From a virus (lineage: Duplodnaviria > Heunggongvirae > Uroviricota > Caudoviricetes): DNA of 64,000 bases. The stretch lies in IMG/VR virus record IMGVR_UViG_3300011972_000167. One strand, written 5' to 3'. The notes beneath the pieces were generated by a model, which made no database searches, was not told where the DNA came from, and was given only the letters and a program-made list of their open reading frames with translations. Position numbers and translations under genes: made by a program. This document shows, in pieces, positions 2,992 through 23,300 of this stretch (position 1 is the first letter of the stretch; the number at the start of each line of letters is the position of its first letter).

Positions 2992-3015
2992 AACCCTTGA
3001 AAGTGAGGTGAAATT

Positions 3016-3630
3016 ATGGCACTGATGTCAATAGGAAAATTTGCTAAAGAAATAGGTTTAAGTGTTCAGCATTTAAGAAAGCTTCATGAAGATAATATTT
3101 TAGCTCCTGCTGTAATAACTAAAGGTGGAACTAGGTATTATTCAGATGAACAACTTTCAGAATACTTAAATAAAGATAACAAACCACAACAATTACCTAT
3201 TATACTGTATGCAAGGGTTTCCACTCGAAGTCAAAAAGATGATTTAGATGGACAGGTGGAAAATCTAAAATTGTATGCAATTTCAAAAGGCTATTCTTTT
3301 GAAATAATAACTGATATAGGTAGTGGTATCGATTATACTAAACATGGATTAAAGCAGTTAATTCAGAAAATAAACAATAAAGAGATATCTAAAATAGTAG
3401 TTCTTTATAAAGATAGGCTTATTAGATTTGGTTTTGAATTGATTGAATATCTTTGTGAACTTAATAATGTAGGTATAGAAATAATTGATAACACAACTAT
3501 ATCAAAAGAAACTGAGCTAACAAATGATTTAATTCAAATTATTACTGTATTTGCTAACAGATTGTATGGATCTAGGTCTAAAAAGACATTAAGATTAATA
3601 CAAGAGGTGAAATCAAATGGTAATCATTAA
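3016..3630 (+). CDS. tnpA: IS607-family TnpA: MerR-like HTH fused to serine recombinase (resolvase) catalytic domain
   Basis: N-terminal HTH (SIGKFAKEIGLSVQHLRKL). Resolvase motifs YARVSTRSQ (catalytic Ser), and GSGIDYTKHGL / LIRFGFELIEYLC, shared with the paralog at 34.8 kb. Overlaps downstream tnpB. Confidence 0.75.
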   Translation: MALMSIGKFAKEIGLSVQHLRKLHEDNILAPAVITKGGTRYYSDEQLSEYLNKDNKPQQLPIILYARVSTRSQKDDLDGQVENLKLYAISKGYSFEIITDIGSGIDYTKHGLKQLIQKINNKEISKIVVLYKDRLIRFGFELIEYLCELNNVGIEIIDNTTISKETELTNDLIQIITVFANRLYGSRSKKTLRLIQEVKSNGNH

Positions 3631-4735
3631 AGGATATAAAATTAGATTATTACCTACTTTAGAACAAGAAATACTTATAAAAAAATCAATAGATGTTTCA
3701 AGGTTTGTTTATAACTGGTGTCTAAATAAACAGCTTAGTTCTGATAAATTTATTAGAGATAACGAATTAAGAAAAGAATTAACTAAATTAAAACGAACAG
3801 ACAGTTACTATTGGTTAAATGAAGTAGGTTGTAATGTAATAAAACAATCAGCAAAAGATTTATGTAATACTTACAAGAAATTTTTTAATAAACTATCTAA
3901 TAAACCAAGGTTTAAGAAAAAGGGTGTTCATAATTCATTTTATGTTAATTATGAAACTATGAAAAAGACTAAGCATGGTGTTAGGTGTGAAAAAATAGGT
4001 GATATTAAAACATCTGAAAGATTGCCTAAACTTATACAAGATAAACATTATATGAATCCTCATATAGTTTTTGATGGAAAATATTACTACATAACTTTTA
4101 GTATAGAAATAAATATAGAACTAAAAGAAAATACATCAAAAATTATAGGCATAGATTTAGGAATAAAATCATTTGCAGTATGCTCAGATGGTACTTTTTA
4201 TAAAAATATAAATAAAACGCATACAGTAAAAAAGTTAAATAAAAAATTAAGAAGATTACAACGATGTGTTAGTAAAAAATACCTTAAGAATAAGATGGGT
4301 AATAAATTTATAAAAACAACGAATATTATAAAACTTGAACATAAAATAAAACTTATACATAGAAGAATAAAAAATATTCGTGAAAATTATATTCATCAAA
4401 TAACATCTCACTTGGTGAAAACCAAACCAAGCAGAATAGTTATAGAAGATTTGAATATAAAAGGAATGTTAAAAAACAAGCATTTATCAAAAGCTATTGC
4501 TGAACAGTGCTTTTATAAGTTTATAAGTGTTTTAGGATATAAATGTGATTGGAATAATATAGAACTTTTAAAGGCAGATAGATTTTATCCCTCAAGTAAA
4601 AAATGTTCTTGTTGTGGAAATATTAAAAAAGATTTGAAACTTAAAGACAGAATTTACAGATGTGGTTTTTGTAGTTTAATAATAGATAGAGACTTTAATG
4701 CAAGTCTAAATTTAGCAAATTATAAATTAGCATAA
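3617..4735 (+). CDS. tnpB: TnpB (IS605/IS607 OrfB family RuvC-like RNA-guided nuclease)
   Basis: N-terminal KIRLLPTLEQ...RFVYNWCLN. RuvC-I IGIDLGIKSFAVCSDG. RuvC-II IVIEDLNIKGMLKN. C4 zinc finger CSCCG...CGFC. RuvC-III DRDFNASLNLAN. Confidence 0.85.
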   Translation: MVIIKGYKIRLLPTLEQEILIKKSIDVSRFVYNWCLNKQLSSDKFIRDNELRKELTKLKRTDSYYWLNEVGCNVIKQSAKDLCNTYKKFFNKLSNKPRFKKKGVHNSFYVNYETMKKTKHGVRCEKIGDIKTSERLPKLIQDKHYMNPHIVFDGKYYYITFSIEINIELKENTSKIIGIDLGIKSFAVCSDGTFYKNINKTHTVKKLNKKLRRLQRCVSKKYLKNKMGNKFIKTTNIIKLEHKIKLIHRRIKNIRENYIHQITSHLVKTKPSRIVIEDLNIKGMLKNKHLSKAIAEQCFYKFISVLGYKCDWNNIELLKADRFYPSSKKCSCCGNIKKDLKLKDRIYRCGFCSLIIDRDFNASLNLANYKLA

Positions 4736-4885
4736 AGTTAAAATTAAAAACAATGCTAATATGTACCGTTCGATACACGGGAATTTAAGCCTTTGGAGAG
4801 TTATATCAAACTAAAGTAGCTTTTTAGCAAAATAGGACTCTGTGAACAAGGAAGTTTTAATCGTGAGATGAAACATAGTAAAAAT
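4736..4885 (+). ncRNA. Putative TnpB omega-RNA / right-end structured region of IS607 copy 1
   Basis: Directly 3' of tnpB. Sequence blocks are conserved with the equivalent position of copy 2 (36592-36735) even though the two proteins are only about 50% identical. Ends with ATGAAACATA at 4868-4877. Confidence 0.35.
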
Positions 4886-5077
4886 TGACATTGATTTATA
4901 TTTAAGTAAATTTTTCGTATCGGTTTAGATGATATAATAGAGAAAGCCATAGTTACAGAAGATAGTGGTAATGATATCAGAGAAACTGCTAAGAAAGTTA
5001 CTAAAGGCATAGTAACTGAAATAAGCGGAAAAGATAATAATGTTATTAAGCCTGTTATAAATAATGTTATAGGTTTT

Positions 5078-5812
5078 ATGTCTGCTGGAGGTGGGGCAGG
5101 GGCAAGTACTATAGTAGCTAATACAGCTAAATTAATAAAGAAAAAGGGTTTATCTGTAGCTATAGTGGATTTGAATATAGTTTATCCGAGTCAGCATTTA
5201 TATTTTTCCATACCACAGGAGTTGGGTAGAAATGATATCTATAGTTTAATGTCAGGTAAGTCAGAACTAGGAGCAAGTTTAGTATACTCTAGTGATATAG
5301 CTTTGTTATTAGCAAATAATCGTGGAATAGTTGATTATATAAATGGAGATGATAAATATTTTTCAGCTAACCTTGAAAAAGCAATAGATAATTTAAGTTA
5401 TCGTTTTGATGTAGTTTTGATTGATTGTCCTTTGGATGTTTCTAATAGCTATGTAAATGCATCCTTATACAAGATAGATACATTATATTTAGTTATAGAT
5501 GATGGTGTTCAATCAATTATAAATGTACCAAAGATAAGAAATGCTTTTGACAGATTCGGTATAGGTTTTGGAAAGTGTAAATTTATAATGAACAAGAGAA
5601 CCAGTAATTTTTATAATGAGAGCAATCTAAATAAGGCTGGTATTAAATTAATTGAGATTATACCTTTTGATTTAGGTATAATAACATCAGGATTAAGATG
5701 TGAATTATATGTAGATAAGGGAATTGGTGTAGACAAGACTAGTAAAGAAGTTGAGAAAGCTTTTAATAGTTTATGTGAAAAAATACTAAGTATAGGGGGA
5801 TATAAGAAGTAA
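5078..5812 (+). CDS. CpaE/TadZ-like MinD/ParA-fold ATPase (ATPase domain only; N-terminus uncertain)
   Basis: Deviant P-loop VIGFMSAGGGAGASTIVANTA straddling the annotated ATG. MinD-like LIDCPLD (Walker B-like). Position is immediately 5' of cpaF as in tad loci. In-frame ORF is open back to 4910 without a canonical start codon. Confidence 0.5.
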   Translation: MSAGGGAGASTIVANTAKLIKKKGLSVAIVDLNIVYPSQHLYFSIPQELGRNDIYSLMSGKSELGASLVYSSDIALLLANNRGIVDYINGDDKYFSANLEKAIDNLSYRFDVVLIDCPLDVSNSYVNASLYKIDTLYLVIDDGVQSIINVPKIRNAFDRFGIGFGKCKFIMNKRTSNFYNESNLNKAGIKLIEIIPFDLGIITSGLRCELYVDKGIGVDKTSKEVEKAFNSLCEKILSIGGYKK

Positions 5813-7306
5813 ATGAAACCTAGTGATTATTTAGAGTTATCCTCTAAAAGAGATGTTAAGAAGAACTTTATATCTGATAATAATGACCAGACTAAAAATA
5901 TAGATTTTGTAGTTAGCGAGTGTAGAAAGTTCCTCAACCTTAACGCCTATGAATACTCCAATAAAACTGGAGATGAAAAAAAGGCAATGCTACAAAACCT
6001 TATAAATAAATTTATAGAGAACATAAATTATAAGGTAAGTGGTTTTGTAACATCAGACGGAAAGTTAAATGTCAATGAGTTATTAAATAAATTATCCCAA
6101 GACATTACGGATTATGGTATTTTATCCGCTGCTATGTATGATGATGAAATATCAGAGATACAAATAAACGGCAAAGAGATTAAGGTAGAGAGAAGAGGAA
6201 GAATAGAAGATTACAGAGATAGTTCTGATAGAATTTTATCTTTCAGCTCTACAGAGCAACAGGATGTAGTATTTAAGCGTTTATTAGGAGATACAAGACT
6301 ATCACCTAAGGATGCAATTTCAAATGCAAGAACAGTTGAGGGTTATCGTATAGCCGCTGTTCATCATAGTGTTATAGCTATGGATACCTTGGTTTCTTCA
6401 AATAACGGTTATAATTATGCTGTTATTCGTAAGTTTAGAAAGCAGAAAATGCCAATACAGCAATTAGTTAAGTATGAAACTATGAGTGATAACATGGCAA
6501 AGTTTCTTGGAACTATGATAGAGGGCGGTTCTACTTTCTTAACAGTTGGACAAACTGCTTCAGGTAAGACCACAACCAATCAATGTATTTTGGATACAGT
6601 TCCAAGTGATTTAAGAACTATACTTATACAGAATCCATCAGAGATTGACCTTGCAAGAAGAGATAGTACAGGCAGAGTTACAAACAATGTTGTCCATTTT
6701 GAGGCAAGGAGCATAGAAAATCCTACTGAAGCAGACCCTACAATGGAGAACTTTATGAACCAGTCCTTGAGATTTTCTCCAACCTTTATATCCTTTGGTG
6801 AGTTAAGATTGGATTCAGAGTTTACTAGGGCTATGGCAGCGGCATTGGCTGGACACTCTTTTAATTGCACCTTCCATGCTGGTAGTAGTTATGGTGCTAT
6901 GCTAAGATATGCTACAGCTTATGAAACTGGTTCTGGAAGTAATAGAGAAACAGTTATGATAAACTTAACAAGCTATGTTAATTTTATTATAGTTCAAGAT
7001 ATAATGAGAGATGGCACTCGTAAGATACTTCAAATAACTGAAGTTTTAGGAACTAAGAAAGATGATAGGGCTGAACCAGACTTAAATGATTTATACATTT
7101 TTGATGTAGGAGAAACTGATTATGATGAGAATGGCAAAATAATTAAGATAAATGGTACTCATAAGAGAGTAGGAAAGTTATCAGATGCTACTGTTCGTAA
7201 GTTTAAGTTACATGGAGTTAATCCCGATAAATATTCTTTCTTGTTAGGTGATGTTACAGATGACGAAGTAGAAACTTATACGGGAGACTTTGAGTTTGGG
7301 AGGTAG
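5813..7306 (+). CDS. cpaF: CpaF/TadA-type secretion ATPase (VirB11/GspE superfamily)
   Basis: Walker A GQTASGKTT. Asp/His-box region ILIQNPSEID and FISFGELRLDSE (equivalent to RIIVGEVR). Start overlaps the upstream stop (TAAATG). Confidence 0.75.
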   Translation: MKPSDYLELSSKRDVKKNFISDNNDQTKNIDFVVSECRKFLNLNAYEYSNKTGDEKKAMLQNLINKFIENINYKVSGFVTSDGKLNVNELLNKLSQDITDYGILSAAMYDDEISEIQINGKEIKVERRGRIEDYRDSSDRILSFSSTEQQDVVFKRLLGDTRLSPKDAISNARTVEGYRIAAVHHSVIAMDTLVSSNNGYNYAVIRKFRKQKMPIQQLVKYETMSDNMAKFLGTMIEGGSTFLTVGQTASGKTTTNQCILDTVPSDLRTILIQNPSEIDLARRDSTGRVTNNVVHFEARSIENPTEADPTMENFMNQSLRFSPTFISFGELRLDSEFTRAMAAALAGHSFNCTFHAGSSYGAMLRYATAYETGSGSNRETVMINLTSYVNFIIVQDIMRDGTRKILQITEVLGTKKDDRAEPDLNDLYIFDVGETDYDENGKIIKINGTHKRVGKLSDATVRKFKLHGVNPDKYSFLLGDVTDDEVETYTGDFEFGR

Positions 7307-7313
7307 ATAGTTT

Positions 7314-8309
7314 ATGGGTTCAATAAATAAAGCTTTAACTACTACTAGCGGTGTAACAGTAAGTGCATTATTGATAATAGCTCTTGCGGCTTTGTTTTAT
7401 ATATTTTACATATTAAAGTTTCGACCTGGCGATTGGTTAACTGGTTTAGCTAAACTTATATTAAAGATTACTGGTAAGAATATAAATAAAGCAGAAAGAG
7501 ACTATGAAAGAAACCTTGAGATTGGAAGATATAAGCAAAAATCAGTAAGAGTAAAAGTCTATAAGTTTTTGAATGATTTAACTATAGACTTAGACCTTAA
7601 GGCATCTGGATATACTCCTTATACTTTATTATTTTTTATAGTTGCTGTTAGTGTTGTTATAGCTTTTATTGTAAGTAATATTGTATTTAGAAATTTGTGG
7701 TTATTTATTTTTGCTTTTCCTATTGTTTTTGCTGCTATAGCTTGTTTCTTATACACTAGGGCTAATATAGCACATGATAGCCGTATAGATGATGTTATAG
7801 CTTCTGAAAATATTATAAGTAACAATGTTAGTAAGGGAGTTGTAGTTTCTATAAGAATGAATTTAGATAGTTTTCCTATCAAATTACAGCCTGTTTTCAG
7901 AGAGTTTGTAGATAGTGTTGAAACAAGAAATACTCATGTTAGGACAGCTTTGCTTGAATTAGGAAGTAACCTAGGTTCTGTATCTGATGACTTTATTCAA
8001 AAGTGTATAACATTTGAATTAGAAGAGGAGCATGGTTTAGTAGGTATATTTAATGATGTTGTAGAAGTTAATAGCATTAAGAGTGAGTTTAGGATTTATA
8101 TGAAGCGTAAGTTTGAAGAGGTTATGTTTGAGTTTATTATGGGATTAGGAATGATATTCTTTTTCCTTGGTGGTATTATAGCCTTATATCCTATGCTACA
8201 GAAATTTTATTTTGTTAATATTTTCGGTCAGATATTGTTATTACTAGATGGGCTTTTAATAGTCGCCGAGTTTGTTTATATAACATATCTAAGAGCACAA
8301 GAGTTATAG
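7314..8309 (+). CDS. tadB: TadB-like polytopic inner-membrane platform protein (T2SS-F-like)
   Basis: 331 aa with TM helices at the N-terminus, middle and C-terminus. Position directly after cpaF and translationally coupled. Confidence 0.5.
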   Translation: MGSINKALTTTSGVTVSALLIIALAALFYIFYILKFRPGDWLTGLAKLILKITGKNINKAERDYERNLEIGRYKQKSVRVKVYKFLNDLTIDLDLKASGYTPYTLLFFIVAVSVVIAFIVSNIVFRNLWLFIFAFPIVFAAIACFLYTRANIAHDSRIDDVIASENIISNNVSKGVVVSIRMNLDSFPIKLQPVFREFVDSVETRNTHVRTALLELGSNLGSVSDDFIQKCITFELEEEHGLVGIFNDVVEVNSIKSEFRIYMKRKFEEVMFEFIMGLGMIFFFLGGIIALYPMLQKFYFVNIFGQILLLLDGLLIVAEFVYITYLRAQEL

Positions 8310-8313
8310 GAGG

Positions 8314-9387
8314 GTGTCAATGGTTTCAAATAATTTAATTATATTAGCCTCTGCTGTAGGTAATTATGGTATAAACAATAGTAATGACATTAATATAGGT
8401 GATAGTTTCAAGTATGAGTACTTCAATCCTATCACATTAAAGTTATTAAACAATTACGGATTTATAAAAATTCTTGTAGCTATAATACTTATAGTATTAG
8501 CCTTTCTTATAATAAAAAATATGATGGGAATACGAAGTATATTTACATCAAAGGCTGTCAGGACAGAGATAGACAACTATAATAACCTTAGAGATAGGGA
8601 TAGTAGAATACTCCATGCTAACAAGTTTATTAGGGGAATAACGGGGTTTATAACAAAAAAAGGTTTTAGAGTAAATCCAGCTTATAAAGAGTACTTTCAG
8701 TATAATTTAGATAGAGCAAATGTCAGGATACCTGGCGGAAGTAGGATATATACTCCTGATGAATTTAACAGCTTAAAAGTGTTGTTTATTTGTTTAGTAA
8801 TACTTATAAGTTTATTAGTTTCTTGGTTTATATCTCCATTCTTTGGTTTTATATTAGCTGTTGTAGTTGGTTCTGCTATAAATATACTTCCAATGATGAT
8901 TATAAGACGAATAGTAGCAGCTAAGGACAGTGAGATAAGAGAAGATTTTCCAGACTTGTATTTGATGATACATTATGAAATAATGAGCGGTGCAAAAACT
9001 CCATTAGCTAAGGCTTTTACTTCTTACAGAAGAGTTACAGACTCCATAGAAATGTTAAAGTTTGTAGATACATCTATAAATATGTTTGAAACTTATGGAG
9101 ATGAAGAGGCTGCCACTAGAATAGCTAAGATTTATAGAGAAATACCTGAAGTTACTAGGTTAATGCGTCTTATAAATCAGTTACATACTGGTGGAGATGT
9201 TAAAAAAGAGTTAAACGGATTTAGGGAACAGATAATAAAGGATAAAAAGTACAGATTAGAGGTTAAAATGAATAAGTTAATTATTAAGGCTAAGATGTCA
9301 TTTTATCTAAGCTATATTGTTTTAGCCCAAGCAATTATAAGTGCTATGGCTTTATTTTTCCCAGATTTGAATTTCTTTAGGCTATAA
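8314..9387 (+). CDS. tadC: TadC-like polytopic inner-membrane platform protein
   Basis: 357 aa with three hydrophobic blocks and a cytoplasmic domain between them. Paralogous architecture to the preceding gene, as in tadB/tadC pairs. Confidence 0.5.
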   Translation: MSMVSNNLIILASAVGNYGINNSNDINIGDSFKYEYFNPITLKLLNNYGFIKILVAIILIVLAFLIIKNMMGIRSIFTSKAVRTEIDNYNNLRDRDSRILHANKFIRGITGFITKKGFRVNPAYKEYFQYNLDRANVRIPGGSRIYTPDEFNSLKVLFICLVILISLLVSWFISPFFGFILAVVVGSAINILPMMIIRRIVAAKDSEIREDFPDLYLMIHYEIMSGAKTPLAKAFTSYRRVTDSIEMLKFVDTSINMFETYGDEEAATRIAKIYREIPEVTRLMRLINQLHTGGDVKKELNGFREQIIKDKKYRLEVKMNKLIIKAKMSFYLSYIVLAQAIISAMALFFPDLNFFRL

Positions 9388-9487
9388 AGCTATAAAACTA
9401 GAATTTAAGAACTGGTTTAAGTTTATTAGGTATAAGAGTAAATAAGATAAAATACTCTTGATACACAGTATATAGGAGGAAAATAAA

Positions 9488-9748
9488 TTGAAAAAGATAT
9501 TCATAGGGCTTATTACAGCGGCTGTAATGGTAACAATAGGTTACATATCACTAAGAATTATATTGCCAAATACTTATATGTCAATGACTAATGCTATTGA
9601 AAAAGGCATTAAGAGCGGTACAGGTATTGCATTTGACCTTAACGGAGATGGTCAGATTGGTACTGGAGCAATGCCAAATACTGGTGCTTTAGATAATAAG
9701 GCTAAACAAGGTGATAATACTGTTACAGGATTAGATGGTTTACATTAA
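9488..9748 (+). CDS. Small pilin-like / secreted protein (TTG start)
   Basis: 86 aa with an N-terminal hydrophobic helix ITAAVMVTIGYISLRIILP. RBS AGGAGG at 8-nt spacing. Followed by a strong terminator. Sits where flp lies in tad loci, but lacks a canonical G/XXXXEY motif. Confidence 0.35.
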   Translation: MKKIFIGLITAAVMVTIGYISLRIILPNTYMSMTNAIEKGIKSGTGIAFDLNGDGQIGTGAMPNTGALDNKAKQGDNTVTGLDGLH

Positions 9749-9813
9749 TTTTTAAGATGTAACCTATTAAATCAACTTAGGCTACAACCGATTGTTGTTA
9801 GTCTATATAAACT

Positions 9814-9848
9814 TAGGCTACAATACACCATTGTAGCCTATTTTAATT
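9814..9848 (+). terminator. Rho-independent terminator after the pilin-like gene
   Basis: TAGGCTACAAT-ACACC-ATTGTAGCCTA (11-bp perfect stem) followed by TTTTAATT. A second imperfect hairpin lies just upstream (9788-9810). Confidence 0.6.
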
Positions 9849-9874
9849 CTATTTAATATAGGAGGTTACGGATT

Positions 9875-10417
9875 TTGAGTGATGCATTGAGATTTATATT
9901 TAAGACATTTATAAAAATACCATTTATAATAATGATTTCTTATTTCCTAGTTAATTTACTTTTGTTTTCGTTGTATTATTTCAAGTTTACTGGTATAAGT
10001 TACAGTGTAATGAATACTGCGATGGAAAATAATTATATACCAGAAAATGAGTATGGAACTATAAAAAAGACTATAGATGACATAAAGAATAGTAGCGTAC
10101 TTATAAAGGATGCTGACATTGTAACTGACACTCCAAATAAAAGAAAACAATATGGAAGTAAGGTAAAAGTAGGTGTTAGATATACTTATAGATGGTTAAC
10201 ACCTTTAATGCCTTGGGATACAGGTCAAACTCCCTCTGATATAAGAGGTGGAACTAGTATAATTGATGATAGTACTGCCAGTGAGGGAAATTTATCTTCT
10301 ATAACTGCTGAGGAGGCAAGGAGAAGAATAGATGCCTTATCAGATAGGTCATTAAATTCACCAATAGAAATAGTTTATGAGGTGCCAGGATTGCAATACT
10401 ATCCTGATATGAATTAG
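9875..10417 (+). CDS. TadE-like pseudopilin / membrane-anchored protein (TTG start)
   Basis: N-terminal TM IPFIIMISYFLVNLLLFSLYYF and position after the pilin gene. RBS GGAGG. Confidence 0.35.
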   Translation: MSDALRFIFKTFIKIPFIIMISYFLVNLLLFSLYYFKFTGISYSVMNTAMENNYIPENEYGTIKKTIDDIKNSSVLIKDADIVTDTPNKRKQYGSKVKVGVRYTYRWLTPLMPWDTGQTPSDIRGGTSIIDDSTASEGNLSSITAEEARRRIDALSDRSLNSPIEIVYEVPGLQYYPDMN

Positions 10418-10434
10418 TTTATGAGGATACTTTA

Positions 10435-11436
10435 ATGGGTAGTGGTATAAAAAGTATATTTAAGGTTCTTATATTTTTTACTTTATTTGTTACAATAGGG
10501 ATGATTATTATTGAGGTATATAATTTGACTATAGCTAGTGAGTTACTAAAGTCTACGGCTCATACTACTTTAGAGAGGTCTTGTGATTATTTTGCTCAAG
10601 AGAGTTATAAAAATGGTAGTGGAAATGCATATCAGTTAAGGGGATATAATAGTGGTTTAGACACTTCCTTAAATGGACAATTTTATTATGGTTCTGACTC
10701 TCAAGTTTATGATAAATTGTATACAAATAGTGATGAATTTAAAACTTATGTTAACAGATTTAAGGATAAATATAGGAAACTTAAGGTATTAGGTAAAGGT
10801 TTAGGTTTAACTCATGATATTTTATTTGATGGTGAAGATGCCATAGGTTCTTATTACAGACAAGGCTTGGTAACTCCATTAAATATAGGTATAGCATACT
10901 TAGATAGGGGTACTGTTGAAAAAATATTCAAATGGGAGTTGGTTGCTATATTATCTTCTGGACAAGAGGATATGATAATTACGAATCCTGCTGATGGTAG
11001 TAACCCTTATGTTTTATATAAAGGGTTTAGAATTTATTATAACTCTATAAAGTTAGAGGATCCTTCTTATAAAGTCTACGATTTATTTAATAGTGATGAT
11101 AAGAAAAAATTTGAAGAATTAACTAACATAGAAGTTGATGATTATATGCTAAGGGCTAGGATAAATGAATCAGATGAGCGTAGATATATAGTTGTAGCTA
11201 ATATGAATTATAAAGTTCGTGTTGGATATGAGGGAATAACTCCAATAAGAAGGCTTTTTCAGTGGGTAGTTAACACGGGAGATGATGAAAGATATGATAT
11301 AAACAATCCAAAGTGGAGTGGGGATACTACTTTAAGTAGGGTAGGAGCAAGAAATGAGGACTTTTTTAGGTCAGGTTTAAGATATGACTCTTCTGTGGGA
11401 ATAGGAAATAAGATTATATACTATATAGTCAGATAG
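10435..11436 (+). CDS. TadE/TadG-like membrane-anchored protein
   Basis: N-terminal TM VLIFFTLFVTIGMIIIEVYNL followed by a large extracytoplasmic domain. Confidence 0.3.
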   Translation: MGSGIKSIFKVLIFFTLFVTIGMIIIEVYNLTIASELLKSTAHTTLERSCDYFAQESYKNGSGNAYQLRGYNSGLDTSLNGQFYYGSDSQVYDKLYTNSDEFKTYVNRFKDKYRKLKVLGKGLGLTHDILFDGEDAIGSYYRQGLVTPLNIGIAYLDRGTVEKIFKWELVAILSSGQEDMIITNPADGSNPYVLYKGFRIYYNSIKLEDPSYKVYDLFNSDDKKKFEELTNIEVDDYMLRARINESDERRYIVVANMNYKVRVGYEGITPIRRLFQWVVNTGDDERYDINNPKWSGDTTLSRVGARNEDFFRSGLRYDSSVGIGNKIIYYIVR

Positions 11437-11444
11437 GAGATAGG

Positions 11445-12080
11445 ATGTTTAGTTTATTTGGGAAAAAGAAAACAAAAGAGCCTGTAGAAGAACTTCCAAT
11501 AGTAGATAAGGCATTATTAATTTTAACAGATAACCCAAAGGCTGGTATGGTAGATTACTTTAAGTCTTTTGATATAAAGATTAAAGGTTTATATAAAAGT
11601 TTAGATGATTTAAGAACTGAGTTAATTTTATATAGTTCAGATATACCTACCAGATTGGTTATTGTAGACAGTGGAGTTGATAAGTTTAACTCTACTGGAA
11701 ACGGTGATAATAATTTATATGATATATTAGAGTTGGCAAGTAATAAAGAGTTTGATATTACTGTATTGACTTCTAATAAAGGTTTGGTAAAAAGTGTAAA
11801 GAGTATACTTAAGAAATTAGGTAAAGCAGTTAATGATAAAGCTGATTACTCGGAGTATGATAGTATAAATTCCATAATAGAAAAGTTAAGTTCTTATAGA
11901 GAACACTATATAGAGAATGGAGCAACAGATATAGTTTTAGAGGAGCCATTAAAATTTAAGGGTCAAGAGGTAGATATAAAGTATCAAACTGGGATAAAAT
12001 ACAATGATTTTGAAACTTTAGCAGGTATATCAGATGATACATTAGGAAATGGTTTAACGGCTTTTAAGGTTAAGATTTAA
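11445..12080 (+). CDS. Hypothetical cytoplasmic protein, last gene of the tad-like operon
   Basis: 211-aa ORF, translationally close to the upstream gene. Followed by a hairpin and T-run. Confidence 0.4.
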   Translation: MFSLFGKKKTKEPVEELPIVDKALLILTDNPKAGMVDYFKSFDIKIKGLYKSLDDLRTELILYSSDIPTRLVIVDSGVDKFNSTGNGDNNLYDILELASNKEFDITVLTSNKGLVKSVKSILKKLGKAVNDKADYSEYDSINSIIEKLSSYREHYIENGATDIVLEEPLKFKGQEVDIKYQTGIKYNDFETLAGISDDTLGNGLTAFKVKI

Positions 12081-12088
12081 TAATGCAT

Positions 12089-12140
12089 AAGAGATAATTT
12101 TAATTTACTTATTTTAGTGGTTAAAGTTATCTCTTTTTTG
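12089..12140 (+). terminator. Putative terminator (long-loop hairpin + T-run)
   Basis: AAGAGATAA ... TTATCTCTT followed by TTTTTG. The loop is about 29 nt, so stability is modest. Confidence 0.35.
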
Positions 12141-12255
12141 TTGTTAAAGCCTGTAAGTAATTAAAGTATAATTAAATGTTTGAATTAGAACTTTTATTGT
12201 TATATAGATATGAAAGTAAGTTCAGATATAGCATAAAAGCTAAGAAAGAGAGTTT

Positions 12256-13497
12256 ATGAGTTTAATTCAGGCATTTTTGATTGATAATTTTAATTTTAAG
12301 GAGGTAACTAATATAATGTTACATGTTTGTACGGACCAAGGTGCTTCATGCACTAGATATTCAGCAAATAACAGTAAGGTGTATAAGAACCCTAATAACT
12401 TTATTACTGTGGAACCCGATGAGGATATCAGATATATACCACATAGCGATGAGTTTGTTGATAACATGGACTTAACGATTACTAAAGATGGAGATAGTGA
12501 TTTCTTTCCTAAAAGGATACTTGGAGGAACTTTAGCGGATAGGTATTCAAGTTCATCTGTTAAGCCAAGCATGCTTTCAAGCAAGAGCAAGCAACCAGTT
12601 AATTACTATAGCATTATTTCATCAGTTGTGGACTCTATATTGCTTAAAGAGGGTTCATTAAACGGAGAAAATCCTGTAGAGGTAGCCTGCTATATCTGTT
12701 TACCACCAGTGGAAATTACGGGTAATAATGAGAACGAAGATTATGTAAAGGCACAACTTAAAGGAAAGTATACGGTTAAGTTAAACAAGATGGATAAAGA
12801 GATTACTTTTAATATAAGAGAGGTAAGTATTTATCCAGAGAGTGTAATGGCTGTTGTTGCCTTTTTGTTTAATCAAGATGCTACTCAGCGTACAGAGATG
12901 GCTAAGTATAATAAAGGAAATGTACTAAGCTTTGATATAGGTGCAAGTACCTCTGACTTGGTTATAATTAACGATAGAAAGTTTGTGGAGCATTCTGGAT
13001 ATACCTGTAAGCTTGGTGGAAATATTATAGATGACTTGCTTCGTAATGAAATTCGCAGAAAGTTAGGCGTAGAGGTTTCTAACGATGACATAGCCGAGGC
13101 AGTAAGAACAGGTAGACTTGCTTATGGTAGCTCTTATAAAGATGTAAGTGAAGAGTTAAAGAAGTGCAAAAAGCAGTTTGCAAAAATGCTTTTTGAGAAG
13201 ATTCAAAACTATTTTGCTACCAATGGAATGGGATTGCAGTCTATCAAGGCTATATTTATGAGTGGTGGCGGTTCAATGCCATCAAGTTACATAGATGAGT
13301 CTGGTAAAGAGATAGTAACATCTCCGTCTGTTGGTGAGTACATAGATGAGGAGATTAAGAAAGTGTGTGACAGCATAGATATGGTACTATCACCATCTGT
13401 AAATCCTAGAGAGTGCAATATAGTTGGGTTAATACTTAGTATGAATGTTCAGAGAAAGCAATCTCAAATTCAGAACAATAAAAGTAAAAAAGAGTAA
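12256..13497 (+). CDS. Actin-like segregation ATPase (ParM/Alp family)
   Basis: Phosphate-1 MLHVCTDQGASCTRY (DxGxxxxR). Phosphate-2 LSFDIGASTSDLVII. Adenosine/phosphate-3 motif AIFMSGGGSMPS. 413 aa. Confidence 0.55.
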   Translation: MSLIQAFLIDNFNFKEVTNIMLHVCTDQGASCTRYSANNSKVYKNPNNFITVEPDEDIRYIPHSDEFVDNMDLTITKDGDSDFFPKRILGGTLADRYSSSSVKPSMLSSKSKQPVNYYSIISSVVDSILLKEGSLNGENPVEVACYICLPPVEITGNNENEDYVKAQLKGKYTVKLNKMDKEITFNIREVSIYPESVMAVVAFLFNQDATQRTEMAKYNKGNVLSFDIGASTSDLVIINDRKFVEHSGYTCKLGGNIIDDLLRNEIRRKLGVEVSNDDIAEAVRTGRLAYGSSYKDVSEELKKCKKQFAKMLFEKIQNYFATNGMGLQSIKAIFMSGGGSMPSSYIDESGKEIVTSPSVGEYIDEEIKKVCDSIDMVLSPSVNPRECNIVGLILSMNVQRKQSQIQNNKSKKE

Positions 13498-13540
13498 GAA
13501 AGGAGAGGACTCTGATAGTTTATGAGTCCTTAAAGATAAA

Positions 13541-15685
13541 ATGCTAAAGACAGCTATATTGGTATGTAAGCAGTCTAAAATAAGATTAAAGCATACAAAA
13601 TCTTATAGGGCTATTACAGAGAAAGAGTTTTTAAGGTTTATGGAATATGATACTTCCATAAACCTTGGTATCATAGAGATAGATAAAGATGCTACTGATG
13701 AAGTTATTAGTAGCATAGTAAAATTAGTAGATTATTGTGAGTCCAATTTGAATAAAAGAGTTATACTAATGTCATATAAGAGTGATGTTAGTATGGATTA
13801 TGTTGCTTATAGTGTAACCGAGTTACAAGAATTGATAGAGGCTGAAACAGGCTATGATGTAAGTACTTATATAAAAGAAAATTTATTCGATGAACAGCAA
13901 GAAGTTCAGGTATCTCAAGTAGAGAATGGCTTATCCTCTATTGCTGAATTTGAGATACCTGATGAAGAAGAGGAAGAAGAAGAGAACATAGAGGTCATCA
14001 AGATTATCAAAGATATAGAAGAGCGTAATATAGAGAATGAAAAGATTAAAGACCTTGAGATGATAATTGATGACCTTAAAGAAAAATTAGATAAATCAGT
14101 AAGCGTTAATGCTGAATTAGAGAGTACAAGAGAAAACTTATTAAAATCAAAGAATGAAGCTGATAATGAAATAGTTAGATTAACTTCTGAATTAGAGTCT
14201 AACAAGCATAAGATAGCCGAGTTAGAAAGTAATAACTATGTTGGAGAGATTGAAAGGCTTGTTAAAGAATTAGATAGTTATAAAATAAAAGTATCAGCTT
14301 TAGATGAAATAGAAGATAAACTCAGGGAAATAAATAGTTTATGTGATGAAAAAGATAAGATTATTAGAGACCTTGAGAATAGTATAAAAGACATTGAAAA
14401 GAAAGATAGAAGAAATGAGATAGTTTTAGAATTAAATTCAAAAAGGGCAGATACTATAAGGTTCATAGATAAAATTTATGTAGACCTTAAAAATACCATA
14501 AATGTTCTTAAGACTAAAGATAGTGAATTACATGAGGCTTTAAGAGAAGTTAAAGAATTAACTGACGACTGTAATTCTCTTAAAGAAAGTTTGAATAGTG
14601 CAATCAGCAGAGAGAAAGAGTATGCAGATAAAGAGTATAAATATAAAGAAAACATAAGTTTATTAGAGTCTAACTTAGATAAATTAGGAGAGGATTACAG
14701 TAACTCTAACAGACTTTTGGAAACCTATAAATCTAAGGTATTAAGTGCTGAAGCTTCTATTGCTCAAAGTGATGTGATAAAAACTAAGTTAAGCATTACT
14801 GAAAAAGAGTTAAAAGCTAGAATTGCTGAAATTGCAGATAAGGACATTGAGATTAAAAGATTAAACTCCAGTGTTAATACTAAAGAAGTAATAACTGTTG
14901 GAGTTGATAAGGTATTCAGTTCTTTTGAATATAAGGGTACTGCTAAGCTAATAAATGTATTTGGCGGAGGCAGTTATGGCATAACAAGCATAGCTTACTC
15001 AATAGCTAATAGGTTAAAAGGCAAGGTATTGTTTTTAGATTTTGATTTATTCAATCCAAAGTCTGATAAATACACTAAGAAAAATCCAATGGTAAGTGTT
15101 GCAGGTGTACCTAACAATCTATATAGGACTGGTGTAGGTGTATTATACAGTTGTGGCATAGATAAGTTTATAAGTGAATATGATAAGCTTGTTATAAAAG
15201 TTCTGAAAATAAAGGAACTTGAGTTAAGTTGGATAAGCGGATTGTATTCAATATTAAAGTTAGAAAATTTAGATTATACATCTGAATTTTTTAATTATAT
15301 AGGCAGTTTATATGATTATATAATAATAGACTCTGGTAAGGTAGGGTATTCCAATATAAATGACAGTTTAATTAAGAGTTTATGTGAGGTTAGCTATAAG
15401 AATTTAGTAGTATCAAGTAATGATACAGTAAGTATAAGGGGAATTGGTTTAGCATTAAATAAAGTTAAGCTAGCTAATGTAGATTGGATATTGAATTTAA
15501 GTAACAATTCTATTATAAGTGATAAAGCTAAAAAGAGTATCGGAGACAGTTCATATTATATATTACCTTTCAGTAATTCTATCTTTGGTACTGACAAATT
15601 AATAATAGATGATAATAACATAGATGGAAGATTATCAGCTTATCTTAGTAAGTTTGGATTGGAGGTAAATAAAGTTGGATTATAA
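13541..15685 (+). CDS. Receiver-like N-domain / ~300-aa coiled coil / C-terminal MinD/ParA-fold domain with lysine-less P-loop
   Basis: N-terminus AILVCKQ...IIEID...VILMSYKSD (beta-alpha pattern). Residues about 130-450 are heptad-rich E/K/L coiled coil. C-terminus LINVFGGGSYGITSIAYSIANRLKGKVLFLDFD resembles the MinD/CpaE Walker A region but lacks the Lys. Confidence 0.4.
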   Translation: MLKTAILVCKQSKIRLKHTKSYRAITEKEFLRFMEYDTSINLGIIEIDKDATDEVISSIVKLVDYCESNLNKRVILMSYKSDVSMDYVAYSVTELQELIEAETGYDVSTYIKENLFDEQQEVQVSQVENGLSSIAEFEIPDEEEEEEENIEVIKIIKDIEERNIENEKIKDLEMIIDDLKEKLDKSVSVNAELESTRENLLKSKNEADNEIVRLTSELESNKHKIAELESNNYVGEIERLVKELDSYKIKVSALDEIEDKLREINSLCDEKDKIIRDLENSIKDIEKKDRRNEIVLELNSKRADTIRFIDKIYVDLKNTINVLKTKDSELHEALREVKELTDDCNSLKESLNSAISREKEYADKEYKYKENISLLESNLDKLGEDYSNSNRLLETYKSKVLSAEASIAQSDVIKTKLSITEKELKARIAEIADKDIEIKRLNSSVNTKEVITVGVDKVFSSFEYKGTAKLINVFGGGSYGITSIAYSIANRLKGKVLFLDFDLFNPKSDKYTKKNPMVSVAGVPNNLYRTGVGVLYSCGIDKFISEYDKLVIKVLKIKELELSWISGLYSILKLENLDYTSEFFNYIGSLYDYIIIDSGKVGYSNINDSLIKSLCEVSYKNLVVSSNDTVSIRGIGLALNKVKLANVDWILNLSNNSIISDKAKKSIGDSSYYILPFSNSIFGTDKLIIDDNNIDGRLSAYLSKFGLEVNKVGL

Positions 15686-16442
15686 AGTAAAATTAGGGGC
15701 TACTTTATCCTTTAATTTAGGACTTGAGAGGGATATGGTTGAGCAAATAAATAAGTTAAAGGCTAGGCATAAGCTTGGAGAGTTTATAAGTAATTCTCTT
15801 AGGATAGTATTTGAAAACCCTGAATTATTAGAAAAACAAGGAGTAAGCCTTGCTGAGTATGGATTAACTGATAATAGAAAGAAATTAAATGATGCTATTC
15901 GTACTGAAATAATCAGAATGAATAATAAAATTCAAAAGACATACAAAATGGCTTATGAAATGTATAGCTTAGCAAAGTTTAATAAGCAATTAAATTTGTA
16001 TGATTGTTCAAGGAACATACTCGCCAGTCAGTTTATACTAGCTAAACAAATAGAAGATTTAAGAAAATTATTAGGGGTCAGTAGTATAGAACAACCTGTA
16101 AATTTACATAAAGTAGATACCAGCATAGATGATATCCTAGAGTACATATTATTAACTCATTCAGAAATAGTAGACGAGTTAAAAGAAAGTTTAACTGGTA
16201 GTAATGATTACTTGAAAAAGTTAAATGACCTAAAAGATTTAGCAGACAAGCATATTACAAAAGAAGTTAAAACTATTGAACCTCAGCCTGATATTGAAGC
16301 AGAAGATGATGAAGATAATGATACTTCTGATATGACTCAAAATGATATAGTTGAAGATGAAAAAGAAGATGAAGCTACTGATTTTGAAATAAGTGATGAT
16401 GCAAATATGAATGATTTAGCTGATTTAATTAATTTGTTTTAA
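15675..16442 (+). CDS. Hypothetical protein with highly acidic C-terminus (TTG start)
   Basis: 255-aa ORF with RBS GGAGG and a C-terminal D/E-rich tail (EAEDDEDNDTSDM...). Confidence 0.4.
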   Translation: MDYKVKLGATLSFNLGLERDMVEQINKLKARHKLGEFISNSLRIVFENPELLEKQGVSLAEYGLTDNRKKLNDAIRTEIIRMNNKIQKTYKMAYEMYSLAKFNKQLNLYDCSRNILASQFILAKQIEDLRKLLGVSSIEQPVNLHKVDTSIDDILEYILLTHSEIVDELKESLTGSNDYLKKLNDLKDLADKHITKEVKTIEPQPDIEAEDDEDNDTSDMTQNDIVEDEKEDEATDFEISDDANMNDLADLINLF

Positions 16443-21558: not shown

Positions 21559-22905
21559 ATGCTGAGACAGAAATATACAACTGTTACTCAACTACATAAG
21601 ATTAATAACAAAGACATTATTGAGTATTTTGAAAATGCTTCTGTATATTTCTGCAAATTACAGAGAAAAGCATTCCATATATTCAAGAATGAAAGTATAA
21701 AAGGAAATAAAGTTGAATATAGCAAATTTAGACAAGTTTTTATGAAAGAACATAATATCAGCAAGAGAACCGCAGACTCTATATTAAAAGATGTTCAAGG
21801 AAAAGTGAAGGCGCTTACTGAATTAAAAAAATACGAAGTTTCCCAAAAGGAGCAGAAAATTAAAAAAATTAAAGAAGAAATTGAAAAACTCGACATTAAG
21901 ATTCTAGAGTTCCAAGAAAAAATGAAAAATAAAATAAAAGTTAATCATTTTAACTATTGGAACTTAAAAAAGTCAAGAGCATTTAAGAAAATGAAGCTGA
22001 ATAAACTTCAGATGAGACTTGAGCAGCTCAGGTGGGAAATAGAAACAGGGCATTATAAGTTATGTTTTGGAACTAAAAAACTTTTAAATTCTGATAAAGA
22101 AAAATTTATTTTACAGCGTGACAGTCAGATGGGATATATTGGGTGTCAAGAAGAAAAAGGAAGAAATAGTGTGTTTCAGTTGAGTTATAATAGTATAAAT
22201 AACCAGTTTCTCATTAAATTAAGGAAAGATTTTGGATTTGATACAGAAGAAAAGTATGTATTTGGAAAATGCTATTTTAATAATCATAAAAACAAACTGA
22301 TAGATGCATTGGAAAATAAAAATTCAACTCCATTGACATATTCAATAAGCAGAAAAAATAGAAGATATTATTTACATTGCACTTTTGAATATAGGATTGA
22401 AAGTAAAGATTTATTTTCAACAAGAAAGGATTACGGAACTATTGGAGTTGATTTTAATAAAGGGTTTTTGACGGTTTCTGAAATAGACAGGAATGGCAAT
22501 CTTGCTAAAACTGACACCCTTAATTATCGCTTTGGAAAAGGAAATAAAACACAATCAGATTTAGAAAATTGTATTTCCAAAATATTAAGAAAAGCTTTAG
22601 AGGTAGGAAAGGATGTGTGCCTTGAAGATTTGAACTTCAATAACACAAAAGCTAAAACAGTGAAAGGTAAAACTGACAAAGGTAAAAAATACAATGATAT
22701 GCTGCATAGTTTGGCATATTCTTTATACGACAAGTTAATAACTAATATTGCTTTTAGAAATAAAATAGGAATTATAAAAGTAAATCCAGCATGGACTAGC
22801 TGGATTGCTAAAAATAAATTTTGTGAAAGAATGAAGTTAAATATACATACAGGAGTAAGTTTTGTAATAGCAAGGCGTGGATTAGGAATTAGAGATATAA
22901 TATAA
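21559..22905 (+). CDS. TnpB-like (RuvC-fold) protein lacking the zinc finger and with a long non-TnpB N-terminal region
   Basis: RuvC-I-like TIGVDFNKGF. RuvC-II-like VCLEDLNFNN. NPAWTSW in place of the TSQ-CxxC region (no CxxC...CxxC). Terminal HTGVSFVIARRG aligns with the RuvC-III DRDFNASLNLAN stretch of the window's TnpBs, but with Gly at the Asp position. N-terminal 290 aa include a K/E coiled coil. Confidence 0.45.
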   Translation: MLRQKYTTVTQLHKINNKDIIEYFENASVYFCKLQRKAFHIFKNESIKGNKVEYSKFRQVFMKEHNISKRTADSILKDVQGKVKALTELKKYEVSQKEQKIKKIKEEIEKLDIKILEFQEKMKNKIKVNHFNYWNLKKSRAFKKMKLNKLQMRLEQLRWEIETGHYKLCFGTKKLLNSDKEKFILQRDSQMGYIGCQEEKGRNSVFQLSYNSINNQFLIKLRKDFGFDTEEKYVFGKCYFNNHKNKLIDALENKNSTPLTYSISRKNRRYYLHCTFEYRIESKDLFSTRKDYGTIGVDFNKGFLTVSEIDRNGNLAKTDTLNYRFGKGNKTQSDLENCISKILRKALEVGKDVCLEDLNFNNTKAKTVKGKTDKGKKYNDMLHSLAYSLYDKLITNIAFRNKIGIIKVNPAWTSWIAKNKFCERMKLNIHTGVSFVIARRGLGIRDII

Positions 22906-23300
22906 AACTTATATTCTGGATAAACTTGTATTCATCCAAGAGAATGGAGCAAGTCACTTTACAGAATTAAAATAAGTAATACATTTCAGTATTGATAAAG
23001 ACTTACATATAAGTGAAATTCTGAAATGATAGGATAACCGTATGTCCTTTAGTACAGTTTGTATTATAAAAATAATCTTGAATAACTTTGGATAAGTTTT
23101 CAAGTTACGGTGTGAGACCTAGTAGTGAGATGCTAAGATTGGCTTTATCTGAAAGGTTTATTAGGATAAACACATTAGAGGGAATGGAATTTTTGCATCT
23201 AGGGCAAGTTTTAGTTAAATGAGTACATGGGGAATTTTATCCTGTACCTCATGAAAAATTTATACAATTATATGATATAGTTAAATAAGGAGGGGATAAA

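Follow-up and report, generated by a model that had tools for sequence, protein, structure and literature searches.

A conserved coiled-coil protein with a lysine-less ParA/MinD-type domain encoded behind an actin-like gene in uncultured gut elements

Bacteria rely on proteins of the ParA/MinD type as their standard ATP-driven switches for positioning. In type II partition systems (ParM/ParR/parC) and in AlpC/AlpA of prophage CGP3, two-protein systems of large extrachromosomal or viral elements, the gene for an actin-like NTPase is followed by partner genes, and to our knowledge no type II or AlpAC system encodes a ParA-fold protein, or a large coiled-coil protein, between its actin-like NTPase and its adaptor. 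Filaments of the actin-like phage protein AlpC, together with the DNA-binding adaptor AlpA, serve the positioning and replication of viral DNA (PMC4446434, PMC5539076), and in the type III TubZ/TubR/TubY system a third, coiled-coil component of the cytomotive partition machinery, TubY, becomes part of the nucleoprotein complex and tethers it to the membrane or to DNA (PMC7762940). TadZ carries a Walker-A-like K/RGGxGxS/T motif and acts in localisation; in Bdellovibrio, a split of its function between two genes, TadZA and RomR, has been proposed (bioRxiv 10.64898/2026.07.08.737194). Localisation persists in TadZ variants whose ATPase activity is low or absent (PMC13189830).

Encoded within the window, which is the whole stretch of 64,000 nucleotides that was analysed, the gene product considered here is a real, conserved protein composed of a small new domain, a coiled-coil rod and a lysine-less MinD/ParA-type domain (Table 1). 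The reading frame proposed in a preliminary description of this DNA proved genuine, and the stretch quoted there, KLINVFGGGSYGITSIAYSIANRLKGKVLFLDFD, is found at aa 469-502. As the architecture is kept by 41 close full-length homologues and throughout the 244 clusters (50% identity) recovered by an exhaustive profile search, in which the C-terminal domain is situated at the C-terminus of proteins of 600-1100 aa, a chance arrangement is excluded. The family has a mean identity of 36%, and every one of its members is metagenomic. Neither megablast nor tblastn matched anything in GenBank phages or PLSDB plasmids, whether the query was the locus, the protein itself or a member of the major clade; a locus search with a 12-sequence alignment led to one MAG contig and one IMG/VR contig, a search with the single protein to no loci. 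No described equivalent was found in the literature searched. As the family as such is absent from Pfam and from cultured phages and plasmids, and its N-terminal domain belongs to no family, the analysis establishes a new family of proteins and, with it, a module that can be tested.

Table 1. Features of the locus, with positions counted from the first nucleotide of the window
Feature	Position	Strand	Description
Coiled-coil protein, complete reading frame	13541..15685	+	714 aa, ATG start; N-terminal domain, acidic linker, coiled coil, lysine-less ParA/MinD-like domain
N-terminal alpha/beta domain (aa 1-115)	13541..13885	+	Iterated HMM, alignment, propensity pattern
Acidic linker (aa 116-150)	13886..13990	+	Net charge -14, run DEEEEEEE
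Heptad coiled-coil rod (aa ~151-448)	13991..14884	+	~300 residues; ~45 nm in length for an unbroken rod
C-terminal ParA/MinD-fold domain (aa 465-714)	14933..15682	+	
Degenerate Walker A GGGSYGITS (aa 475-483)	14963..14989	+	Both deviant-Walker-A lysines gone; aligned to Soj KGGVGKTT
Switch-I / Walker A' D-x-D (D500, D502)	15038..15046	+	Invariant, 50/50 sequences
Walker B D597-x-G599 followed by conserved K/R600	15329..15340	+	K/R600 in 46/50
Actin-like (ParM/Alp-type) gene	12256..13497	+	Pfam MreB-like_C 2.3e-9, StbA_N 6.2e-5; PHROG 691 partition protein 5.3e-23
Downstream 255-aa gene	15675..16442	+	TTG start inside the last codons of the coiled-coil protein gene; candidate DNA or filament adaptor
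CpaE/TadZ-like gene	4922..5812 (ORF from 5078)	+	Canonical slot before cpaF; lysine-less; 5' end cut off by IS607-type insertion
Rest of the Tad-like locus	5813..11436	+	CpaF-type ATPase (T2SSE 9.9e-19), two polytopic membrane proteins, 86-aa Flp-like prepilin, two further putative pilin-like proteins
Conserved 211-aa protein between Tad-like genes and actin-like gene	11445..12080	+	

The C-terminal domain possesses the seven-stranded alpha/beta fold of the ParA/MinD type, as the preliminary description had proposed. The evidence comes from the family: as AlphaFold2 (AF2) with six sequences gave a pLDDT of 50, an alignment of 50 sequences was used instead. The profile of the family matches Soj in the PDB with an E-value of 6.6e-6, the top ~20 matches are all of the ParA/MinD/Wzc type, and the sequence homology extends to FlhG, ParA and AAA_31, with the Pfam families AAA_31 and CbiA matched by 22 and 10 of the 50 members, respectively. 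The BY-kinases Wzc and CapB are matched as strongly as Soj (E 7e-6), and Wzc likewise joins a long helical domain to a C-terminal ParA/MinD-like domain. The sequence of the window protein alone did not reveal this homology, a 6-sequence profile of the domain found no match in the PDB, and the window protein alone against Pfam and PHROGs gave weak matches to coiled-coil families only, which are noise.

The predicted absence of the P-loop lysine holds for the family as a whole, the consensus of which reads G-x-G-S-[YF]-G-[IV]-T-T. Among 50 sequences, the position of the P-loop lysine holds I or V in 44 and K in one, while that of the signature lysine is occupied by S, T, C or G and never by K or R; the deviant Walker A motif x-K-G-G-x-x-K-[ST] with both lysines is thus present neither in the window protein nor in the family. 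The remainder of the pocket is strictly maintained. G480, D500, D502 and G599 are invariant and D597 is conserved in 49 of the 50 sequences, followed by G475, G477, R633 and N652 (48/50 each) and by S478 and T482 (46/50 each), which puts the conservation of the P-loop Thr, of the DxD in switch I and of the Walker B Asp at 92-100%. Two family members from the same gene context, P0068 and P0176, retain G-K-T-T, which indicates that the ancestral P-loop was canonical. Near-invariant Gly/Ser/Thr of the P-loop, DxD and Walker B Asp speak for a pocket that has stayed in use, and the motifs suggest that it may still bind a ligand and probably hydrolyses poorly. The earlier designation as a probably non-hydrolysing pseudo-ATPase is plausible, but has to be set against this conservation. 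The strictness of DxD and Walker B, taken with K/R600, would be equally compatible with real catalysis.

Features in common with the MinD/FlhG/FleN branch are the DxD of switch I, the Asp of Walker B and a conserved MinD-like Arg after the fourth strand, R633 occupying the position of the MinD-like 'S-x-R-D' motif. The family differs in having lost both lysines of K-G-G-x-x-K-[ST], in the fusion to the new N-terminal domain and to a coiled coil of ~300 aa (231-760 aa), and in being encoded with an actin-like gene and not with MinC/MinE or flagellar genes; no minC or minE gene is located nearby. In the protein, ~10 residues follow the final helix of the fold. The C-termini vary within the family, and an amphipathic, basic membrane-targeting helix as at the C-terminus of MinD was not found among them.

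A long coiled coil in the middle of the protein, noticed from the sequence beforehand, was borne out by composition and periodicity. The region aa 131-448 contains one Pro and two Gly, consists to 43% of D/E/K/R and is enriched for hydrophobic residues at the a/d positions, and the heptad periodicity of the window protein reaches z = 6.7 against composition-matched shuffles, and each of the 133 full-length members of the family tested exceeds z = 4.6. While the three-part architecture is shared by 133 of 136 full-length members, the length of linker plus rod ranges from 231 to 760 aa, by which the rod behaves as a spacer.

The N-terminal domain, recognized by iterated HMM search in 133 of 136 full-length family members, carries the motif V-K-V-G-x-x-S-x-[IL]-[KR]-[LF]...[YH]-R-A-[IV]-T and an E46 at the end of a strand; columns conserved to at least 90% are only V8, R23, A24 and E46. 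It had been described as receiver-like. An alternation of beta and alpha elements is indeed seen with a crude propensity prediction, although the helix between the first two strands is missing, but sequence and profile comparisons do not connect the domain with receivers: none of 46 members matched Pfam Response_reg (PF00072), the profile of the domain matched one designed protein and no natural protein in the PDB, a 6-sequence profile matched nothing there, and hhalign against a receiver alignment gave a probability of 0.2%. In this non-significant alignment the place of the acceptor Asp is taken by E46, with which the third strand ends. A receiver profile match, with the acidic pocket, phospho-acceptor Asp and conserved Thr/Ser and Lys, was not found.

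With respect to genomic context, the position right after an actin-like gene stated in the preliminary description is confirmed and recurs: in nine of nine contexts, down to ~30% identity, the actin-like gene is located directly 5' and the gene for an acidic-tailed protein of ~240-320 aa follows, although all of these contexts stem from collinear relatives within a single element clade and are not independent, so that the adjacency may reflect descent. The actin-like protein is very divergent, with no match in the PDB or among phages. In the window, the third gene is translationally coupled to the gene for the coiled-coil protein, as judged from an overlap of 11 nt and a GGAGG 8 nt before its TTG; the two genes also overlap in L001 and L003. 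The downstream protein shows a short strand-helix-helix pattern at its N-terminus, a conserved acidic region of low complexity and, at its C-terminus, a tail that is hydrophobic and likewise conserved; it is without a match in Pfam and PDB. Scans for promoters and terminators gave no excess of sites over shuffles.

The trio is a core module of this clade of uncultured elements. The clade is diverse, its elements from the gut measure 110-300 kb and possess their own replisome genes as well as a Tad-like pilus locus, and the genes around the coiled-coil protein are of the replication and partition type (5'-3' exonuclease, PolA, clamp loader). The element is putatively a jumbo phage or a megaplasmid of gut Clostridia.

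As both lysines are lost and the gene keeps a constant place between the actin-like and the acidic-tailed gene, a scaffold rather than a motor appears to be the most likely role. Our favoured but tentative reading of the sequence is that the protein may be a dimeric, rod-like, non-motor scaffold in an undescribed actin-based DNA-positioning module. The coiled coil, its pairing assumed, would form a parallel dimer in which the two ParA-like domains are held side by side, and given such a dimer the ATP-and-lysine-dependent dimerisation switch of ordinary ParA/MinD would no longer be needed. The pocket would bind nucleotide with slow or no turnover, as reported for TadZ. The paired C-terminal domains could represent a permanent docking platform, plausible in view of the partner recruitment by MinD, FlhG and TadZ, while the N-terminal domains ~45 nm away might bind a second partner. 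As scaffold or tether, the protein would couple the actin-like filament and the adaptor-DNA complex to a cellular landmark, or would organise this complex. It would constitute a third component with a role comparable to that of TubY in TubZ/TubR systems, the closest functional analogy, even though the two are not homologous and TubY possesses a MerR-type HTH, a short tetrameric coiled coil, a lysine cluster and a tubulin-like filament as partner.

Extended to the whole trio, a more doubtful though still conceivable proposal is a so far undescribed cytomotive system of three components in which parts of type I and type II partition machinery are merged. Giant gut phages or megaplasmids of a diverse clade would employ it for positioning or segregating their genomes, or for anchoring these to a Tad-like envelope machine of their own, and the ParA fold would have changed from a switch driven by ATP to a constitutive docking module dimerised by the coiled coil. 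With the fold and most of the pocket kept, both lysines dropped and a dimerising rod gained, such a protein would be a natural switch-to-scaffold experiment, one step beyond TadZ. The pairing with a divergent actin-like protein points to unstudied DNA organisation by giant mobile elements of gut Clostridia, which would stand alongside PhuZ spindles, AlpAC and TubZRY.

A relation to TadZ had been proposed from the order of domains. Structures of TadZ/CpaE are 3fkq and 3ea0. The likeness stands as far as the ParA-like domain is concerned: like that of TadZ, it is without the lysine of GK[ST], and it shares with the TadZ motif K/R-G-G-x-G-x-[ST] the core G-[GS]-x-G-x-T, but the leading K/R is replaced by S/T/C/G, a receiver is undetectable, and a long coiled coil separates the two domains. 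The protein is not the TadZ of the locus, as the canonical slot directly upstream of tadA/cpaF is filled by a separate, conserved CpaE/TadZ-like gene, whereas the gene for the coiled-coil protein comes after six further genes and the actin-like gene, separated from cpaF by six genes. The CpaE-like protein at 5078 carries GGGAGAST and is lysine-less, as stated earlier (SAGGGAGAST, aligned to SGKGGVGKTT of MinD). The coiled-coil protein could still be a localisation hub, i.e. a second, elongated TadZ paralogue which sets the place or the spacing of the CpaF/TadBC platform, e.g. at a pole, with its N-terminal domain as a protein-binding module. Tad-like genes, the order of which is shared by L001, L003, L005, L011 and L012, are indeed located upstream of the trio in eight of nine contexts, a small domain in front of a ParA-like domain resembles the logic of TadZ, and the local CpaE-like protein is without a receiver-type N-terminal domain, so that the function could be split over two genes as proposed for TadZA and RomR. 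This role is nevertheless unlikely, as the gene always follows the actin-like gene, also in L013 where the trio has no adjacent Tad-like genes, and as the local CpaE-like protein scores below Soj in the profile comparison.

It is rather improbable that the C-terminal domain is instead an active nucleotide switch or ATPase, in which K/R600, as a relocated basic residue, or a residue of a partner replaces the P-loop lysine and which, cycling with nucleotide, regulates the dynamics of the actin-like filament or moves cargo in a hybrid of type I and type II partition systems. The near-invariant pocket residues, the conservation of K/R600 and R633 and the two members with G-K-T-T would fit such an activity. 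On the other hand, P-loop NTPases that have lost the P-loop lysine normally no longer hydrolyse, the signature lysine for the ATP sandwich dimer is missing as well, and in TadZ a similar motif goes along with ATPase activity that is low or absent (PMC13189830).

The preliminary description had alternatively considered the protein as the filament-to-DNA adaptor, the equivalent of ParR or AlpA, with one end on a centromere and the other on the filament. The gene occupies the usual place of ParR directly downstream of the actin-like NTPase, the C-terminal domain is mildly basic (median pI 8.85), and dimers of the ParA fold are capable of non-specific DNA binding. ParR, however, is a small ribbon-helix-helix (RHH) protein with a ParM-binding tail, while the protein of the window has an alpha/beta domain at its N-terminus and a globular ParA domain at its C-terminus, its family (714-1143 aa) is far larger than known adaptors, no recognisable DNA-binding motif is present in it, and no convincing centromere-like iterated repeats were found around the trio. 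The features expected of an adaptor, a strand-helix-helix pattern and an acidic, hydrophobic-tipped tail, belong to the coupled next gene, the product of which would fit the role better, as inferred from these features since hhalign against RHH proteins was negative. The adaptor role is thus a remote prospect for the coiled-coil protein.

That the protein is a tape-measure-like or fibre protein with the coiled coil as main feature is highly improbable, as the weak match to a PHROG tape measure (E 0.0011) is confined to the compositionally biased coiled coil, the neighbours are replication- and partition-type genes and not structural genes, and a tape measure would have no use for a conserved cytoplasmic domain of the ParA fold.

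Further ideas about the locus were considered and not upheld. Comparison of the N-terminal domain with the 211-aa protein encoded upstream showed no relation, and the 211-aa protein is equally unrelated to receivers. Recent paralogy of the C-terminal domain with the local CpaE-like gene does not agree with scores of 10-18 bits, as compared to 28.6 bits to Soj. Finally, the insertion sequence does not cut the CpaE-like gene inside the P-loop; as homology reaches upstream to 4922, only about the first 8 codons of this gene have been displaced.

The protein encoded directly downstream of the actin-like gene, here called the rod protein, consists of an N-terminal domain, a variable middle segment and a C-terminal domain, and as its relatives share this three-part architecture, they form a large, diverse and as yet unnamed family. 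A word-indexed search recovers no more than 41 homologues of full length; these fall into three clades with 96%, ~65% and ~43% identity and come from metagenomic contigs that reach 300 kb. When the C-terminal 270 aa serve as query in an exhaustive profile search, the yield is 244 clusters, defined at 50% identity, with E <= 1e-3, of which 232 have E <= 1e-10; nearly all are proteins of 600-1100 aa that carry the domain C-terminally. By iterated HMM the N-terminal domain of ~115 aa is present in 133 of 136 full-length members, with 231 to 760 aa separating it from the C-terminal domain. The family has no match in GenBank phages or PLSDB plasmids; among GTDB species representatives it occurs on one 4.4-kb contig only (a Lachnospiraceae MAG from water-deer caecum) and in IMG/VR on one 268-kb viral contig.

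The long central coiled coil of the preliminary description is upheld: the 318 residues of aa 131-448 include a single Pro and two Gly, are 43% charged and show a/d heptad enrichment, the heptad signal being z = 6.7 versus composition-matched shuffles and z > 4.6 in 133/133 full-length relatives tested. The anatomy is solid. The ATG start codon leads into the N-terminus (MLK/MLN...) common to all close homologues. It has no obvious Shine-Dalgarno sequence; a strong Shine-Dalgarno-like sequence, AAGGAGAGGA, follows the actin-like stop codon with a spacing that suits a three-codon mini-ORF (ATG AGT CCT TAA), and the two may reflect re-initiation or coupling.

Of the receiver-like N-terminal domain proposed earlier, the alternating beta/alpha pattern stands and the receiver identity is unproven. 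Alignment-averaged Chou-Fasman propensities, which are crude, give the order strand, strand, helix, strand, helix, strand, (helix), strand, helix, with no helix intervening between strands 1 and 2 and one helix deleted in the window's own clade. No member's N-domain matches Pfam Response_reg, the sole noteworthy Pfam match being OKR_DC_1_N in one member (5e-4); a PDB profile search finds a designed Rossmann-like protein only, and hhalign against four receiver sequences gives a probability of 0.2%. Only V8, R23, A24 and E46 reach >= 90% in a 46-sequence alignment.

The C-terminal domain finds no match with the sequence of the rod protein alone, and with a 6-sequence alignment its AlphaFold2 model is poor (pLDDT 50). 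A 50-sequence profile, on the other hand, matches Soj (E 6.6e-6) and Wzc (7e-6) in the PDB, as well as VpsO, FlhG, PF-32 and ParA chains, the best 20 matches being essentially all of ParA/MinD type; Pfam AAA_31 is matched by 22/50 members and CbiA by 10/50, and AlphaFold2 with the same alignment reaches pLDDT 93.2 and pTM 0.91. These three lines agree on a predicted ParA/MinD-type domain, as had been suspected. The fold is already known, and so are, as a concept, ParA-like localisation factors poor in lysine; new are the family, its N-domain, the obligatory coiled-coil rod and the constant association, in giant uncultured elements, with an actin-like gene.

Coordinates of features in the window and, where named, on related metagenome contigs
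Feature	Coordinates	Details
Tad/Flp-type pilus locus	1464-11436	complete-looking; upstream of actin-like gene
CpaB-like gene		weak match
CpaE-like gene, native start	~2354	RBS AGGAGG, ATG GGA AAA CTA...
Region with IS607-type insertion	2354-4921	insert ~2.55 kb; ~650 nt non-coding on its left
Serine recombinase	3016..3630	within insertion
TnpB	3617..4735	within insertion
RAGATH-18 (RF03064)	4790-4853	69 bits
CpaE-like gene	4922-5812	homology to relatives resumes at 4922; in-frame TAA five codons upstream
CpaE-like gene, L001	1449-2333
CpaE-like gene, L003	1282-2199
CpaE-like gene, L005	1152-2072
CpaF-type ATPase		T2SSE 9.9e-19
Two polytopic membrane proteins
Flp-like prepilin		86 aa
Two further Tad-like locus proteins
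Conserved 211-279-aa protein	11445-12080	211 aa
Inverted repeat	12076-12148	28 nt, imperfect, 79% complementary, 17-nt loop, then T-rich run
Actin-like gene	12256..13497
AAGGAGAGGA region	13498-13540
Mini-ORF	13523
Rod protein gene	13541..15685	+ strand; 714 aa
K600 codon	15338-15340
Acidic-tailed protein gene	15675-16442	TTG start; GGAGG 8 nt upstream within last codons of rod protein gene
ORF	21559..22905	448 aa
IS605-orfB-I RNA (RF03065)	22915-23114	119.5 bits
TnpB	35413..36591
RAGATH-18 (RF03064)	36642-36715	71 bits
Large ORFs	39167-42988, 54231-56873, 56885-61906	1273, 880, 1673 aa
Genes replacing Tad-like block, with trio, L013	1-8764	983, 69, 97 aa; contig 111 kb

The rod protein is not the TadZ of the adjacent Tad-like locus, as the TadZ slot is held by a conserved CpaE-like gene, the product of which is itself lysine-less (SAGGGAGAST or ASGGTGTST versus SGKGGVGKTT in MinD; switch-I DxD reads D-L-N) and is scored by the family profile at 10-18 bits, below Soj at 28.6 bits. 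A role as a TadZ-like hub serving the Tad machine is unlikely, if the strongest of the alternatives. In its favour, the CpaE-like protein has an N-terminal extension of only ~60 aa without a receiver-type domain, and the Tad-like block lies upstream in eight contexts; against it stand the occupied slot, the higher score of Soj and contig L013, the one context observed with the trio of actin-like, rod protein and acidic-tailed genes uncoupled from Tad-like genes. Always located between Tad-like genes and the actin-like gene is a conserved protein with the motif (V/I)(V/I)DSG.GKF, unrelated by hhalign to the N-domain or receivers; the inverted repeat that follows its gene, not called by the terminator scan, might bind a protein or act as a terminator. 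In the literature searched, Tad loci were nowhere described for jumbo phages; the present one is carried on a 110-300 kb element with one relative classed as viral in IMG/VR. In the window, the insertion splits the CpaE-like gene near its 5' end, so that in this particular element the function of the Tad-like locus may be impaired.

In the P-loop-like stretch of the rod protein (aa 469-502), position 481, that of the P-loop lysine, is I/V in 44/50 diverse family sequences and K in 1/50, and alignment with Soj places the family's G-S-G-S-Y-G-V-T-T opposite K-G-G-V-G-K-T-T; neither the signature lysine nor that of the P-loop is therefore retained, the absence of the latter having been noted previously. 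Two members, P0068 and P0176, retain G-K-T-T in an unchanged gene context, which indicates an ancestor with a canonical P-loop. The remaining pocket is conserved despite a mean identity of 36% (window numbering: G475, G477, R633 and N652 in 48/50; S478 in 46; G480, D500, D502 and G599 in 50; T482 in 46, with Ser in the other 4; D597 in 49), which argues from sequence that it would still bind a ligand. From what is established for P-loop and deviant Walker A NTPases, a protein lacking both lysines is not expected to hydrolyse normally or to form an ATP-sandwich dimer. Next to the D-x-G of Walker B, at a position commonly taken by Pro or Ala in ParA/MinD proteins, stands K/R600 (46/50; directly C-terminal to the motif), on speculation a candidate relocated basic residue replacing the P-loop lysine. 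A still-active switch built on this residue is an improbable reading that ranks next, with the loss of both lysines against it. A precedent for the lysine-poor pocket is TadZ: its motif reads K/RGGxGxS/T (bioRxiv 10.64898/2026.07.08.737194), and TadZ variants that have little or no ATPase activity still localise (PMC13189830).

In nine of nine contexts (the window and contigs L001, L003, L004, L005, L009, L011, L012 and L013; identity down to ~30%) the rod protein gene is directly preceded by an actin-like gene (377-413 aa) and directly followed by a gene for a 240-322-aa protein; as all contexts are collinear relatives, this linkage is partly phylogenetic and does not amount to nine independent observations. 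The window's actin-like gene matches Pfam MreB-like_C (2.3e-9) and StbA_N (6.2e-5) and PHROG 691 partition protein (5.3e-23). The downstream gene, overlapping the rod protein's stop codon, encodes a protein that opens with a conserved strand-helix-helix pattern (invariant F13, E18, H32, K33, G35 and R43, including the motif H-K-x-G), is helical in the middle, has a low-complexity acidic stretch and ends in a conserved hydrophobic tail (...DLADLINLF, ...LLGDFFGE, ...ALSTFFGLG). With these features, expected of a ParR/AlpA-type adaptor, its product is a candidate for that role, which we infer only, since Pfam, PDB and hhalign all failed to recognise it. A search near the trio for centromere-like repeat arrays was negative, and promoter and terminator scans yielded no excess of sites over shuffles. 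The rod protein itself, earlier suggested as filament-to-DNA adaptor, is a poor and quite improbable candidate, being large and devoid of a DNA-binding motif while the downstream gene suits the role better; that it is a structural phage protein is most improbable of all.

The most economical reading, held tentatively, is that of a coiled-coil-dimerised docking scaffold. As a mechanism we infer that a parallel coiled-coil dimer would keep two ParA-like domains permanently together, so that an ATP switch relying on lysine would no longer be needed; the paired domains, which probably have nucleotide bound, would offer a docking surface, as in MinD, FlhG and TadZ, while the N-domains, some 45 nm away at the opposite tip of the rod, would bind a second partner. 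The rod protein would be a third component, without motor function, of an actin-like positioning module, with a role like that of TubY in TubZ/TubR systems (PMC7762940), with AlpAC as a comparable phage-type actin system (PMC4446434, PMC5539076).

With respect to the element, the window has ~29% G+C, a strong positive GC skew and genes nearly all on the + strand, with replication genes (5'-3' exonuclease, PolA, clamp loader) 3' of the trio and no recognised capsid, portal or terminase in its 64 kb. Contigs with the family are 110-300 kb long, carry their own replisome genes and bear several IS607/IS605-type insertions; L004 has in addition a homing-endonuclease-like gene and L005 a sortase and a SpaA-type adhesin. 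As a best guess, the element is either a jumbo phage or a phage-like megaplasmid, with gut Clostridia as its hosts. Each RAGATH-18 motif lies just 3' of one of the two TnpB genes, consistent with a guide (omega) RNA region. The 448-aa ORF directly 5' of the IS605-orfB-I RNA has no Pfam or PHROG match at E <= 0.001 and may encode a divergent TnpB/IscB-like nuclease. The three large ORFs are likewise unmatched at this threshold, and L001 retains a ~1264-aa counterpart of a very large window ORF.
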